The notes under the pieces: generated by a model
Database searches by the model: none
The model's input: the letters and a program-made list of their open reading frames with translations, nothing else
What the model was told of the DNA's origin: nothing
Origin: Escherichia coli
GTDB taxonomy: Bacteria; Pseudomonadota; Gammaproteobacteria; Enterobacterales; Enterobacteriaceae
Length of the DNA: 64,000 nt
Assembly: GCF_002854065.1 (NCBI RefSeq)
Contig: NZ_CP024147.1
Reading direction: 5' to 3' (one strand)
Made by a program: the position numbers and the translations under genes
Shown here: positions 48,469 to 54,404 of the stretch, piece by piece
How the letters are laid out: every line of letters starts with the position of its first letter
Numbering within the stretch: position 1 is the first letter of the stretch

Positions 48469-48484
48469 TGGCGTAAATCTTGCC
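48469..48484 (+). promoter_or_regulatory. Candidate sigma-54 (-24/-12) promoter upstream of xdhA
   Basis: TGGCGT-AAATC-TTGCC fits TGGCAC-N5-TTGCW with correct GG/GC spacing, about 95 nt upstream of the xdhA start; a sigma-54 activator gene (ygeV) is adjacent. Confidence 0.4.
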
Positions 48485-48578
48485 TGCTTAGACTAAATCT
48501 TTGCCATAAGAACCAAATGTTCAAATCGAGGGGATTTCTATGGAAGCGCGGGAAGCAACCGCTACGGGTGAATCATGC

Positions 48579-50837
48579 ATGCGCGTTGATGCCATTGCTA
48601 AGGTCACCGGGCGGGCACGATATACTGACGATTATGTTATGGCGGGCATGTGTTATGCGAAATATGTACGTAGCCCTATCGCACATGGTTATGCCGTAAG
48701 TATTAATGATGAACAAGCCAGAAGTTTACCAGGCGTACTGGCGATTTTTACCTGGGAAGATGTGCCTGATATCCCATTCGCTACAGCTGGGCATGCATGG
48801 ACACTTGACGAAAACAAGCGCGATACCGCCGATCGCGCACTGCTAACTCGCCATGTTCGTCATCATGGTGACGCCGTTGCCATCGTCGTGGCCCGCGATG
48901 AACTCACGGCAGAAAAAGCGGCGCAATTGGTCAGCATTGAGTGGCAAGAATTACCCGTTATCACCACGCCAGAAGCGGCGCTGGCAGAGGACGCTGCACC
49001 AATCCATAACGGCGGCAATTTACTGAAACAAAGCACGATGTCGACGGGCAATGTCCAACAAACAATCGATGCCGCCGACTACCAGGTACAGGGGCACTAT
49101 CAGACTCCCGTTATTCAACATTGTCACATGGAAAGCGTAACATCGCTGGCGTGGATGGAGGATGACTCGCGAATTACCATCGTTTCCAGCACCCAGATCC
49201 CGCACATTGTTCGCCGCGTGGTTGGTCAGGCGCTGGATATTCCCTGGTCATGCGTACGAGTCATCAAACCATTTGTCGGTGGCGGTTTTGGTAATAAACA
49301 GGATGTACTGGAAGAGCCAATGGCGGCATTCCTGACCAGCAAGCTTGGCGGCATTCCGGTGAAAGTTTCCCTTAGCCGTGAAGAGTGTTTCCTCGCAACC
49401 CGTACCCGCCACGCTTTTACTATTGACGGGCAAATGGGCGTGAGCCGCGACGGAACATTGAAAGGTTATAGTCTGGATGTTCTGTCTAACACCGGCGCTT
49501 ATGCATCTCACGGGCACTCCATCGCTTCTGCGGGGGGGAATAAAGTCGCTTACCTTTATCCTCGTTGTGCCTACGCTTACAGTTCAAAGACCTGCTATAC
49601 CAACCTCCCCTCGGCTGGTGCGATGCGTGGTTATGGCGCGCCACAAGTCGTATTTGCCGTTGAGTCTATGCTTGATGACGCCGCGACAGCGTTAGGTATT
49701 GATCCTGTTGAAATTCGTTTACGCAACGCCGCACGCGAAGGAGATGCTAATCCGCTCACGGGCAAACGTATTTACAGCGCAGGGTTGCCGGAGTGTCTTG
49801 AAAAAGGCCGGAAAATCTTTGAATGGGAAAAACGCCGTGTAGAATGCCAGAACCAGCAAGGCAATTTACGCCGCGGCGTTGGCGTCGCCTGTTTTAGCTA
49901 CACCTCTAATACCTGGCCTGTCGGCGTAGAAATAGCAGGCGCGCGCCTTCTGATGAATCAGGATGGAACCATCAACGTGCAAAGCGGCGCGACGGAAATC
50001 GGTCAGGGTGCCGACACCGTCTTCTCGCAAATGGTGGCAGAAACCGTGGGGGTTCCGGTCAGCGACGTTCGCGTTATTTCAACACAAGATACCGACGTTA
50101 CGCCGTTCGATCCCGGCGCATTTGCCTCACGCCAGAGCTATGTTGCTGCGCCTGCGCTGCGCAGTGCGGCACTGTTATTAAAAGAGAAAATCATCGCTCA
50201 CGCCGCAGTCATGCTACATCAGTCAGCGATGAATCTGACCCTGATAAAAGGCCATATCGTGCTGGTTGAACGACCGGAAGAGCCGTTAATGTCGTTAAAA
50301 GATTTGGCGATGGACGCTTTCTACCACCCTGAACGCGGCGGGCAGCTCTCTGCTGAAAGCTCCATCAAAACCACCACTAACCCACCGGCGTTCGGCTGTA
50401 CCTTTGTTGATCTGACGGTCGATATTGCGCTGTGCAAAGTCACCATCAACCGCATCCTCAACGTTCATGATTCGGGGCATATTCTAAATCCGCTGCTGGC
50501 AGAAGGTCAGGTACACGGCGGAATGGGAATGGGCATTGGCTGGGCGCTATTTGAAGAGATGATCATCGATGCGAAAAGCGGCGTGGTCCGTAACCCCAAT
50601 CTGCTGGATTACAAAATGCCGACCATGCCGGATCTGCCACAACTGGAAAGCGCGTTCGTCGAAATCAATGAGCCGCAATCCGCATACGGACATAAGTCAC
50701 TGGGTGAGCCACCAATAATTCCTGTTGCCGCTGCTATTCGTAACGCGGTGAAGATGGCTACCGGTGTTGCAATCAATACACTGCCGCTGACGCCAAAACG
50801 GTTATATGAAGAGTTTCATCTGGCAGGATTGATTTGA
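48579..50837 (+). CDS. xdhA: Xanthine dehydrogenase molybdenum-binding subunit
   Basis: ORF 48540..50837; product from MRVDAIAKVTGRARYTDDYV is 752 aa; aldehyde-oxidase/xanthine-dehydrogenase MoCo domain. Confidence 0.93.
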   Translation: MRVDAIAKVTGRARYTDDYVMAGMCYAKYVRSPIAHGYAVSINDEQARSLPGVLAIFTWEDVPDIPFATAGHAWTLDENKRDTADRALLTRHVRHHGDAVAIVVARDELTAEKAAQLVSIEWQELPVITTPEAALAEDAAPIHNGGNLLKQSTMSTGNVQQTIDAADYQVQGHYQTPVIQHCHMESVTSLAWMEDDSRITIVSSTQIPHIVRRVVGQALDIPWSCVRVIKPFVGGGFGNKQDVLEEPMAAFLTSKLGGIPVKVSLSREECFLATRTRHAFTIDGQMGVSRDGTLKGYSLDVLSNTGAYASHGHSIASAGGNKVAYLYPRCAYAYSSKTCYTNLPSAGAMRGYGAPQVVFAVESMLDDAATALGIDPVEIRLRNAAREGDANPLTGKRIYSAGLPECLEKGRKIFEWEKRRVECQNQQGNLRRGVGVACFSYTSNTWPVGVEIAGARLLMNQDGTINVQSGATEIGQGADTVFSQMVAETVGVPVSDVRVISTQDTDVTPFDPGAFASRQSYVAAPALRSAALLLKEKIIAHAAVMLHQSAMNLTLIKGHIVLVERPEEPLMSLKDLAMDAFYHPERGGQLSAESSIKTTTNPPAFGCTFVDLTVDIALCKVTINRILNVHDSGHILNPLLAEGQVHGGMGMGIGWALFEEMIIDAKSGVVRNPNLLDYKMPTMPDLPQLESAFVEINEPQSAYGHKSLGEPPIIPVAAAIRNAVKMATGVAINTLPLTPKRLYEEFHLAGLI

Positions 50838-52241: not shown

Positions 52242-54020
52242 TTATGTGTTTAACAACTCATATTTCTTAATCTTGCGATAGAGCGTAGCAATGCCGATGC
52301 CCAGTTCATCAGCAACTTGCTTCTTGCTGTTATGACGTGAAAGCGCCTCGCGGATCATTTGCTTTTCCATCTCCTCCAGCGCCGTGCCGCCCGCATCATC
52401 GAGTGACAGGTGTGCCTCAGTGACCTCTGTTACATCACTTTGCTCCGTTGTGCCATTATTCAGCAGATTTGGCGGCAATAGCGTGCTGTCGATAACTTCA
52501 CCTGAAGGAACAACGTTAACCAGATATTCCATCAAATTGCTTAACTCGCGCAGGTTTCCGGGCCAACGATGCTTACGCAATATTTCGACGACATCGGGAG
52601 CAATGCCAGGATAAACCGATCCCAGACGACGGGTATGCAGATGTAAAAAGTAATGCACCAGTAGTTCAATATCTTCCTGACGTTCACGCAGCGGTGGCAG
52701 AGTTATCGGGATAACATTAAGTCGGTAGAAGAGATCTTCGCGGAATTTACCTTCGGCAATGAACTGGGCCAAATTCTGGTTAGTTGCAGAAATGATGCGA
52801 ATGTCGACTTGTATTGGGCTACTGGCACCAATCGGCAGAATTTCACGTGCCTCAATAGCGCGCAGTAATTTAGCCTGCAACATTAATGGCATATCACCTA
52901 TTTCATCTAGAAACAGCGTGCCCGTATTCGCCGCCTGAATCAACCCTGTTTTACCGTTGGCAGAAGCGCCAGTAAATGCGCCTTTAACATAACCGAACAG
53001 TTCGCTCTCCAGAAGCTGCTCCGGAATCGCGGCACAGTTGATAGCAATAAAGGGTTTATTCCGTCTTCCGCTCAACTTATGGATTGCACGGGCGACGACT
53101 TCTTTACCCGTGCCGCTTTCACCAACCACCATAACGCTGGATGGGCTGGGTGCAATACGGCTAATGAGTCGTTTTAATTGCCGCATAACACGGCACTCGC
53201 CAACCAATTGTTCAATATGCGGTTCATCAGGTGCATTTGCTACAGAAAAACTGGTATGCGATTGGTGAAACGCCATTAAAAATAATTGTCGGCCCTGAAT
53301 GTTATGCAATTGGCCAATGATTAATTCACTTTTATCGTCCCACGAAACAATATGCTGCATATGTCCATGGGTAAAATTACTCTCAAATGTTAATGGTCTG
53401 AAACGGATAGGTTTCCCAATAATATTATTTTGTACAATACCAAGTGTTTTTAAGGCAGTCTGATTAACAAACTGAACCCGACTTTCATCATCAACAACTA
53501 ATACGCCCTGATCCATATTATCGATCATGGTCGCGAATATTTTACTGATGTTATCTCCTGGCCCCTGATCCTCCAGAAGTTTCGAAACAAAAATGGTGGA
53601 TATATGGCGAACATAATCAGAAAATTCGCGTAAATTATCACTGATATGCTCTTGTTGCTCGTGGGTAACGGCAATCAAACTTATCACCCCAACACAACGA
53701 TCCTGTAAAATGACAGGCGTACCCAGAAATGCTTTTTCGCGGCAATTTTCTTTACTATCGCAACCTTCGCAAAGGGGATCGAAGCGAGACTGTGTCACAA
53801 CTTTTTCAGTTTTCGTTTCCAGGACGTGGCGGAGCAGGCGTGAGTTGCCGCTCAACTGGCGACCAAGAAACTTCCCATACGCGCCAGTTCCGGCGACGCG
53901 ACACAAGTTTTCATCAACGATCTCAACCTCAAGCTGCAAAACGCTGGCAAGCATTCTGGCAAAACGCTGAATTGTCGGTTGAATTTGCATCAATACTGAC
54001 TGCGTAGTAGCAAGCTCCAT
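52242..54020 (-). CDS. ygeV: Sigma-54-dependent transcriptional regulator
   Basis: 592-aa ORF; AAA+ sigma-54 activator motifs (GESGTGKE, GAFTGA, C-terminal HTH ...IATLYRKIKKYEL). Confidence 0.92.
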   Translation of the reverse strand: MELATTQSVLMQIQPTIQRFARMLASVLQLEVEIVDENLCRVAGTGAYGKFLGRQLSGNSRLLRHVLETKTEKVVTQSRFDPLCEGCDSKENCREKAFLGTPVILQDRCVGVISLIAVTHEQQEHISDNLREFSDYVRHISTIFVSKLLEDQGPGDNISKIFATMIDNMDQGVLVVDDESRVQFVNQTALKTLGIVQNNIIGKPIRFRPLTFESNFTHGHMQHIVSWDDKSELIIGQLHNIQGRQLFLMAFHQSHTSFSVANAPDEPHIEQLVGECRVMRQLKRLISRIAPSPSSVMVVGESGTGKEVVARAIHKLSGRRNKPFIAINCAAIPEQLLESELFGYVKGAFTGASANGKTGLIQAANTGTLFLDEIGDMPLMLQAKLLRAIEAREILPIGASSPIQVDIRIISATNQNLAQFIAEGKFREDLFYRLNVIPITLPPLRERQEDIELLVHYFLHLHTRRLGSVYPGIAPDVVEILRKHRWPGNLRELSNLMEYLVNVVPSGEVIDSTLLPPNLLNNGTTEQSDVTEVTEAHLSLDDAGGTALEEMEKQMIREALSRHNSKKQVADELGIGIATLYRKIKKYELLNT

Positions 54021-54389
54021 AGCTTTACCTTCCAGACTTACTTAAAAGTCGATCATTGAAGACGTTGATGGTTCACAGATCATGATGATATTAACTCAGG
54101 CGAAATTGGCTTTGATAAAAACATAAGATTTTTATCACTTTCTAATGAAATTATGGAAGAGATATCACATTTCTATATCAATATGAGAATTACGGCGGTG
54201 AGTTTATCAAACTGACGAGGGATAGCCTGCCCCTTTATCTTATTTCTGATACTTAGCAGCAAATAAATAACGCAATAAAAAAAGCCAAACGTTTTCGTAT
54301 TTTACAAACAACCGGAAGCTAGCATCAATTTGTGATCAACCCCACACATTATCCGTCAAATTAGTCTTTTGCAGCCCCGTGGATAATTC

Positions 54390-54404
54390 TGGCACACTTA
54401 TTGT
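54390..54404 (+). promoter_or_regulatory. Weaker sigma-54-like motif upstream of ygeW
   Basis: TGGCAC-ACTTA-TTGT: good -24 element, imperfect -12 (GT instead of GC), about 100 nt upstream of the ygeW start. Confidence 0.3.

Follow-up and report, generated by a model that had tools for sequence, protein, structure and literature searches.

The closest described relatives of the arrangement considered here are the PrpR/prpBCDE system of Escherichia coli and Salmonella and the FhlA-controlled formate regulon of E. coli. In the former, the activator gene is divergent from its sigma-54 catabolic operon, PrpR has a sensor domain in place of a receiver domain, the shared spacer holds a CRP site, and the enhancers lie upstream of the −24/−12 element. 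In the latter, one activator without a receiver domain serves several sigma-54 promoters of an anaerobic pathway (hyc, hyp, fdhF and hydN), including a divergent promoter pair. Here, we describe a comparable locus in a stretch of 64,000 nucleotides from the E. coli contig NZ_CP024147.1 (hereafter the window), which covers the actS(ygeR)-xdhABC-ygeV-ygeWXY region and matches thousands of complete E. coli genomes at about 99% identity. Two −24/−12 motifs flank ygeV, a gene that is convergent with xdhC and divergent from ygeW. These motifs are very probably genuine sigma-54 promoters driving xdhABC and ygeW-ygeX-ygeY(-hyuA-yqeA), the operons of a purine/uric-acid catabolic cluster, with YgeV as the likely activator. 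The arrangement is textbook sigma-54 control.

Both promoters have a published history. Zhao et al. (2010) reported the same xdhA motif and found a 4.9-fold increase in xdhA expression when sigma-54 was induced and a 2.1-fold decrease when rpoN was deleted (PMC2831329). A sigma-54 promoter was predicted for ygeW by Francke et al. (2011; PMC3162934). A subsequent chromatin immunoprecipitation sequencing (ChIP-seq) study by Bonocora et al. (2015; PMC4591121) listed four sigma-54 sites in this cluster, i.e., OS29 to OS32. The xdhA motif is letter for letter OS29 (FAT 11, marked as experimentally confirmed in EcoCyc), the ygeW motif is letter for letter OS30 (FAT 3), and OS31 and OS32 belong to ygfK and ygfT. 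The start-to-gene distances given in that study (84 nt for xdhA and 80 nt for ygeW) are reproduced exactly in the window when the K-12 start codon of xdhA, at 48579, is used. Shimada et al. (2021) later observed an RpoN holoenzyme peak in the ygeV/ygeW spacer by genomic SELEX (gSELEX; PMC8743547), and Lamoureux et al. (2023) defined a putative 13-gene YgeV iModulon that includes the xdhABC and ygeWXY operons as well as hyuA, ssnA, ygfM, xdhD and uacT, calling the sigma-54 promoters upstream of xdhABC and ygeWXY already known (PMC10602906). Since the motifs are identical to OS29 and OS30 and were preceded by the xdhA, ygeW and iModulon reports, the finding is a known one: both promoters are already mapped and published, and nothing is new in the promoters themselves. 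The original prediction, made from the bare sequence, that xdhABC and ygeW/ygeX/ygeY have sigma-54 promoters is thus borne out by ChIP-seq, by the rpoN dependence of xdhA, by the iModulon and by the conservation described below. Its further suggestion of a compact YgeV/sigma-54 regulon stands in that both operons fall in the YgeV iModulon, but not in its compactness, since ygfK and ygfT likewise have sigma-54 sites upstream and the iModulon comprises 13 genes.

The xdhA element, CTGGCGTAAATCTTGCC, occupies positions 48468-48484 (+) upstream of the xdhA-xdhB-xdhC operon (48540-52202, +), with a predicted transcription start at about 48495. The ygeW element, CTGGCACACTTATTGTT, lies at 54389-54405 (+), with a predicted start at about 54416, and is followed by the co-directional run ygeW-ygeX(dpaL)-ygeY-hyuA-yqeA(arcC) (54496-60627, +). 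The two literal motifs first noticed could be placed to the base, each as the sole match in the window: TGGCGT-N5-TTGCC as TGGCGTAAATCTTGCC at 48469-48484 (+), 55 nt from motif end to the xdhA ATG (48540), and TGGCAC-N5-TTGT as TGGCACACTTATTGT at 54390-54404 (+), 91 nt from motif end to the ygeW ATG (54496). The −24/−12 spacing is canonical for GG and GC/GT at both sites. The xdhA site has GG and GC in register and fits the sigma-54 rule (TGGCAC-N5-TTGCW, with GG and GC ten bases apart); the ygeW site has the GG, and its −12 part reads GT (TTGT) instead of GC, a variant also present in the validated pspA and pspG promoters (PMC4591121).

Motifs this short might be chance matches without function. 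Each literal pattern is expected 0.08-0.21 times per window, and at least one match was found in 8 of 100 shuffles for the xdhA pattern and in 20 of 100 for the ygeW pattern. Because shuffled sequences match so often, the patterns alone are insufficient, and matrix scoring and conservation were used instead. A sigma-54 matrix of 17 columns was built from 38 intergenic ChIP-seq sites of Bonocora et al. (PMC4591121), from which the four sites of this cluster were excluded to avoid circularity. With this weight-matrix scoring, which had been proposed as a check, the ygeW site scores 16.0 bits and ranks second, and the xdhA site scores 12.0 bits and ranks seventh, among 127,968 window positions. 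The top match (16.4 bits, CTGGCACGCGATGTGCA) lies inside ptrA at 8886-8902 (−) and is itself the published intragenic ChIP site IS33. Leave-one-out scores of the 38 ChIP promoters range from 5.4 to 20.3 bits, which places ygeW in the middle of that range and xdhA at its low end. The ChIP-seq, gSELEX and expression data, together with the matrix ranks and the invariance across genera, already refute chance matching, which retains next to no probability. As to relative strength, the original prediction called the xdhA site near-consensus and the ygeW site weaker. This order agrees with the ChIP-seq signal (FAT 11 vs. 3) and with the matrix of Bonocora et al. (10.9 vs. 9.8), but the independent matrix reverses it (16.0 for ygeW vs. 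12.0 for xdhA) and gSELEX gives a holoenzyme peak in the ygeV/ygeW spacer but none upstream of xdhA, so that it is ambiguous which of the two sites is the stronger.

Conservation was assessed in the ygeV neighbourhoods of 11 further Enterobacterales genera, represented by Enterobacter sp. Bisph1, Citrobacter, Kluyvera, Raoultella, Trabulsiella, Atlantibacter, Pseudocitrobacter, Intestinirhabdus, Pluralibacter, Serratia and Cedecea. A first protein search with YgeV returned only near-identical E. coli sequences. The orthologue of Bisph1, which is 69% identical to E. coli YgeV and was the sole enterobacterial orthologue among the matches listed in a scan of genome contigs with YgeV, was then used as the query for diverse genera, and the other ten were selected among proteins 70-85% identical to that of Bisph1. 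In all 12 genera (E. coli and the 11), ygeV is divergent from ygeW, and the best sigma-54 match in each ygeV-ygeW spacer is YTGGCACnnTTATTGTT, located 79-106 nt before the ATG, with an invariant TTGT. Upstream of xdhA, the best match is CTGGCGTAnnTnTTGCC in the four genera that keep xdhABC beside ygeV. Invariant positions make up 14 of 17 in the ygeW element across 12 genera, compared with 15.5% of columns in the whole spacer, and 14 of 17 in the xdhA element across five genera, compared with 19.7%. No other block of either spacer is as well conserved as the −24/−12 element, in comparisons of up to 12 genera; these elements and their geometry are under selection. Farther away, full-length YgeV homologues of 34-39% identity occur, among the matches listed, in Clostridium, Eubacterium, Sedimentibacter and Propionigenium, where they adjoin xdhABC, ygeW/X/Y, ssnA, hyuA and uacT-type genes, and those operons are directly preceded by near-consensus sigma-54 sites scoring 17.6-20.2 bits. 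The recurrence of YgeV homologues beside the same genes in Firmicutes and Fusobacteriota shows that the pairing of activator and pathway is old and widespread.

The ygeV gene (alias isrR; 52242-54020, −) encodes a sigma-54 enhancer-binding protein. The complete sigma-54 activator AAA+ domain ascribed to it was recovered as PF00158 (Sigma54_activat; E-value 9.4e-71, profile positions 1-167 of 168), with Walker A (GESGTGKE) at residue 300, Walker B (LFLDEIG) at residue 369 and the GAFTGA loop that contacts sigma-54 at residues 347-352. The AAA lid follows, and then a C-terminal helix-turn-helix of the Fis type, the HTH_8 domain at residues 548-587 (E-value 1.4e-13). YgeV thus has every motif needed in an activator. 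On the N-terminal side, a PAS domain spans residues 162-206, and residues 1-160 gave no match in Pfam or among solved structures. YgeV/IsrR (isrR being the later name) has been called an orphan response regulator (PMC9426417). However, a receiver (REC) domain is missing, with no Response_reg match, and the N-terminus consists of the PAS domain and the 1-160 region; YgeV is therefore not a response regulator, and that designation was rejected. No NCBIfam equivalog claims YgeV; the best match, PrdR, reaches 387 bits against a cut-off of 795 and covers the AAA+ and HTH regions only.

A search for inverted repeats 80-200 bp upstream of the promoters, another of the proposed checks, led to conserved dyads upstream of both xdhA and ygeW. 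The dyad, TmTCA-N3-TGAkA, is found at fixed distances upstream of the xdhA, ygeW, ygfK and ygfT promoters, as TATCAATATGAGA at xdhA, ygeW and ygfT and as TTATCATAATGATAA at ygfK; a further form, TTCTCA-N3-TGAGAA, lies inside yqeC. Two dyads, 21 bp apart, precede xdhA: d1, TTTATCACATTGATTTT, at 48335-48351 (centre at about −152 from the predicted start; TATCA-N3-TGA conserved in five genera), and d2, CCACTCATATTGATACG (reverse complement CGTATCAATATGAGTGG), at 48356-48372 (centre at about −131; conserved in five genera). The main dyad of the ygeV-ygeW spacer, TATATCAATATGAGAAT, is at 54174-54190, centred at about −234 from the predicted ygeW start and some 155-170 bp upstream of the ygeV ATG, and is conserved in 12 genera. 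A weaker second dyad, GTTTATCAAACTGACGA, with a TTATCA-N3-TG block, follows at 54202-54218; its columns are conserved in 12 genera, and its score with the dyad matrix described below does not reach 10 bits. Within the window, the 12-mer CTCATATTGATA is present at just two places, 48359-48370 ahead of xdhA and 54176-54187 ahead of ygeW; a third copy precedes ygfT in a reference genome. The FNR-like sequence TTGATACGTATCAC at 48365-48378, which agrees with 9 of 10 positions of the FNR consensus, overlaps d2; FNR (TTGAT-N4-ATCAA) was rejected as a general explanation of d2, its second half-site not being conserved outside E. coli. A Fur box was likewise discarded for the ygfK palindrome, on a reading in which the half-sites are oppositely arranged and the TATCAATATGAGA form is not Fur-like.

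A dyad matrix was trained solely on the ygeW and xdhA sites of genera other than E. coli. In an 86-kb composite of the window and the rest of the cluster, seven positions reach at least 16.5 bits, compared with 0.29 expected from 200 dinucleotide shuffles, and all seven lie inside the cluster, including the ygfK and ygfT upstream regions, which were absent from the training. The ygfK dyad, TTTATCATAATGATAAG, is at 63842-63858, and the ygfK sigma-54 site OS31 lies 25 nt past the window end. In the 11 loci of the other genera (239 kb), 35 of the 37 matches that score 15 bits or more are located at the ygeW, ygfK, xdhA or yqeC positions. Distances from dyad to −24/−12 element are conserved although the sequence between them varies: 215-218 bp for ygeW in 12 genera; 163 bp for ygfK in six genera and 183-185 bp, about two helical turns more, in E. 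coli and Citrobacter; and 112-113 and 131-133 bp for xdhA (the latter being d1) in E. coli and in single measurements in Citrobacter and Atlantibacter. Since the same dyad stands at a fixed distance before the ygfK and ygfT sigma-54 sites, one activator probably turns on the whole cluster, and this co-occurrence suggests that TmTCA-N3-TGAkA is probably the YgeV enhancer. High-scoring matches also occur inside coding regions, in ygeX at 56018-56034 (GATATCAAGATGATATT, also present in Citrobacter) and in guaD at 12133-12149 of locus L002 (CATATCAATATGCGTAT); these may be functional or may be chance matches.

A number of points weigh against the proposal that YgeV drives both promoters. With its 12.0 bits, the xdhA site falls at the lower end of the scores of validated promoters, and gSELEX lists no holoenzyme peak upstream of xdhA (PMC8743547). 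The ygeW site has GT rather than GC at −12, its ChIP occupancy is low (FAT 3), and many sigma-54-bound sites may never fire (PMC4591121). Start-site data for xdhA or ygeW were not found in the literature, nor, unlike for xdhA, was a report of rpoN dependence for ygeW. On the side of the activator, we infer that YgeV controls xdhA and ygeW, direct YgeV dependence having been reported for ygfT alone; a search of the accessible literature returned no published YgeV binding site or binding data; a massively parallel reporter study of 2026 (Reg-Seq) found no consistent footprints at the YgeV iModulon promoters; and the dyad might be the site of some other regulator.

The points on occupancy and firing would fit an alternative in which both sites are bound but poised or silent, the operons being expressed from sigma-70 promoters under CRP and/or FNR. 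A CRP-like site, TGTGATCAACCCCACA, does lie at 54331-54346 between the enhancer dyad and the ygeW promoter (centre at about −77.5 from the predicted start), with GTGA-N6-TCGCA conserved in 12 genera, a native Crp site is mentioned in the ygeV-ygeW spacer (PMC12507026), and the FNR-like sequence covers xdhA d2 in E. coli. However, sigma-70 consensus scans of both upstream regions gave no site above the shuffle expectation and none in a conserved block, and conservation of the FNR-like half-site does not extend beyond E. coli. Moreover, xdhA responds to both rpoN deletion and sigma-54 induction (PMC2831329), the −24/−12 elements are the most conserved blocks of the spacers, and the Firmicute homologue loci also have strong sigma-54 sites. 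We therefore regard silent sites as very unlikely.

The sites might instead be genuine sigma-54 promoters served by an activator other than YgeV, e.g., NtrC under nitrogen limitation, with the dyad belonging to an unrelated regulator. Purine catabolism is tied to nitrogen metabolism, the third table of the NtrC/RpoN paper lists a gSELEX peak between xdhB and xdhC (PMC8743547), and our literature search found no direct YgeV binding data. However, ygeV is divergent from ygeW in every genus compared, and its homologues flank the same genes in Firmicutes. The dyad is restricted to the cluster in the 86 kb of E. coli and nearly so, at four orthologous positions, in the 239 kb of the other genera. 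It is also unlike the NtrC site, TGCACC-N5-GGTGCA. In addition, two second-hand citations tie the pathway to this gene: ygfT expression is lowered in a ygeV mutant, as cited in PMC10602906, and formate-dependent use of uric acid needs ygeV, as attributed to Iwadate and Kato (2019). Control by another activator is accordingly given a very low probability.

With YgeV kept as the activator, the following mechanism can be proposed. Sigma-54 holoenzyme binds at 48468-48484 (ChIP-seq, PMC4591121) and at 54389-54405 (ChIP-seq, PMC4591121; gSELEX, PMC8743547), and it would be expected to rest as a closed complex at both −24/−12 elements. YgeV, sensing through its N-terminal and PAS region, would most likely bind as oligomers to the dyads upstream of xdhA and ygeW, loop to the closed complex and open it by ATP hydrolysis. 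In this way, xdhABC, ygeWXY(-hyuA-yqeA), ygfK-ssnA-ygfM-xdhD and ygfT would be switched on together, and the conserved CRP-like site at ygeW would probably add catabolite control. Between the xdhA dyads and promoter, a conserved block, TTTTTTTAACGTCATCACA (TTTTTAA-N3-CATCACA), lies at 48417-48435, at about −69, with 11 of 17 positions invariant in five genera; it is possibly a bend or a CRP half-site. For IHF, reading by eye with the consensus WATCAANNNNTTR gave no convincing or conserved match between dyads and promoters.

The dyad inside yqeC may extend this scheme. A sigma-54 site within yqeC, TGAGCACGAACCTTGCA, at 62694-62710 (−) is the published ChIP site IS34 and faces yqeB. About 220 nt downstream of it, the perfect palindrome TTCTCA-N3-TGAGAA spans 62452-62468, some 165 bp before the yqeB ATG; the half-sites of the palindrome are conserved in eight genera, with a variable centre and diverged flanks. 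Between this dyad and the yqeB start, no sigma-54 motif was found. The palindrome may act as a downstream enhancer of a yqeB promoter and, if so, the promoter/enhancer pair in yqeC would serve a selenium-molybdenum cofactor gene. Judging from its placement, it is on balance likely that the dyad is the YgeV enhancer and would define a regulon of four to five promoters that includes this intragenic pair.

Several features of the window itself concern these genes. The annotated start of xdhA varies, giving 765 residues (RefSeq PGAP, ATG at 48540) or 752 residues (K-12, 48579); the former is preceded by the better Shine-Dalgarno sequence (GAGGGG), and it is this start that is kept in other genera. 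The yqeC and ygfK sigma-54 sites are shifted by about 180 bp from their published K-12 coordinates relative to the xdhA and ygeW sites, which indicates an insertion or deletion of about 180 bp relative to K-12 within ygeW-yqeC (about 54.4-62.7 kb of the window). A complete 768-bp IS1 lies at 47435-48202 in the actS-xdhA spacer, with insB directed towards xdhA and a 9-bp target duplication, AACGCGGTA, at 47426-47434 and 48203-48211. Between it and dyad d1 lie 132 bp, and between it and the xdhA −24/−12 element 265 bp; the candidate xdhA enhancer and the promoter are therefore intact. The junction between IS1 and the xdhA spacer was found in 0 of 5,426 complete E. coli genomes. Further IS1 ends at 39421-39447 and 40212-40238, within an upstream remnant of the ETT2 type III secretion system, indicate that the source strain is rich in IS1; it may be a Shigella or belong to an E. 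coli lineage not yet sampled.

The cluster is that of anaerobic purine/uric-acid degradation in gut bacteria, which is being engineered to lower urate (PMC12507026), and its control logic (sigma-54, YgeV and CRP) would be useful for such work. The modest new element is a testable candidate binding site for YgeV and its geometry, which was not obtained by the 2026 reporter study.

While similar in layout to the systems introduced above, the locus differs from each of them. Compared with PrpR, first, YgeV apparently acts on four or more separate promoters within about 31 kb. Second, its sensor region has a PAS domain, and the NCBIfam PrpR model gives 321 bits against a cut-off of 499. Third, the candidate dyad TmTCA-N3-TGAkA differs from the site of PrpR. 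FhlA, whose promoters stand in the same ChIP-seq table as those described here (PMC4591121), responds to formate, and its binding site and pathway also differ from those of YgeV. The PrdR-type PAS-AAA+-HTH activators of Clostridia resemble YgeV in that PrdR is its best NCBIfam match, albeit below the cut-off, whereas their target pathway is a different one. The features closest to those of the window are OS29-OS32 and the YgeV iModulon, which are the same features and the same gene set; the only extra here is the IS1 located 265 bp upstream of the xdhA element.

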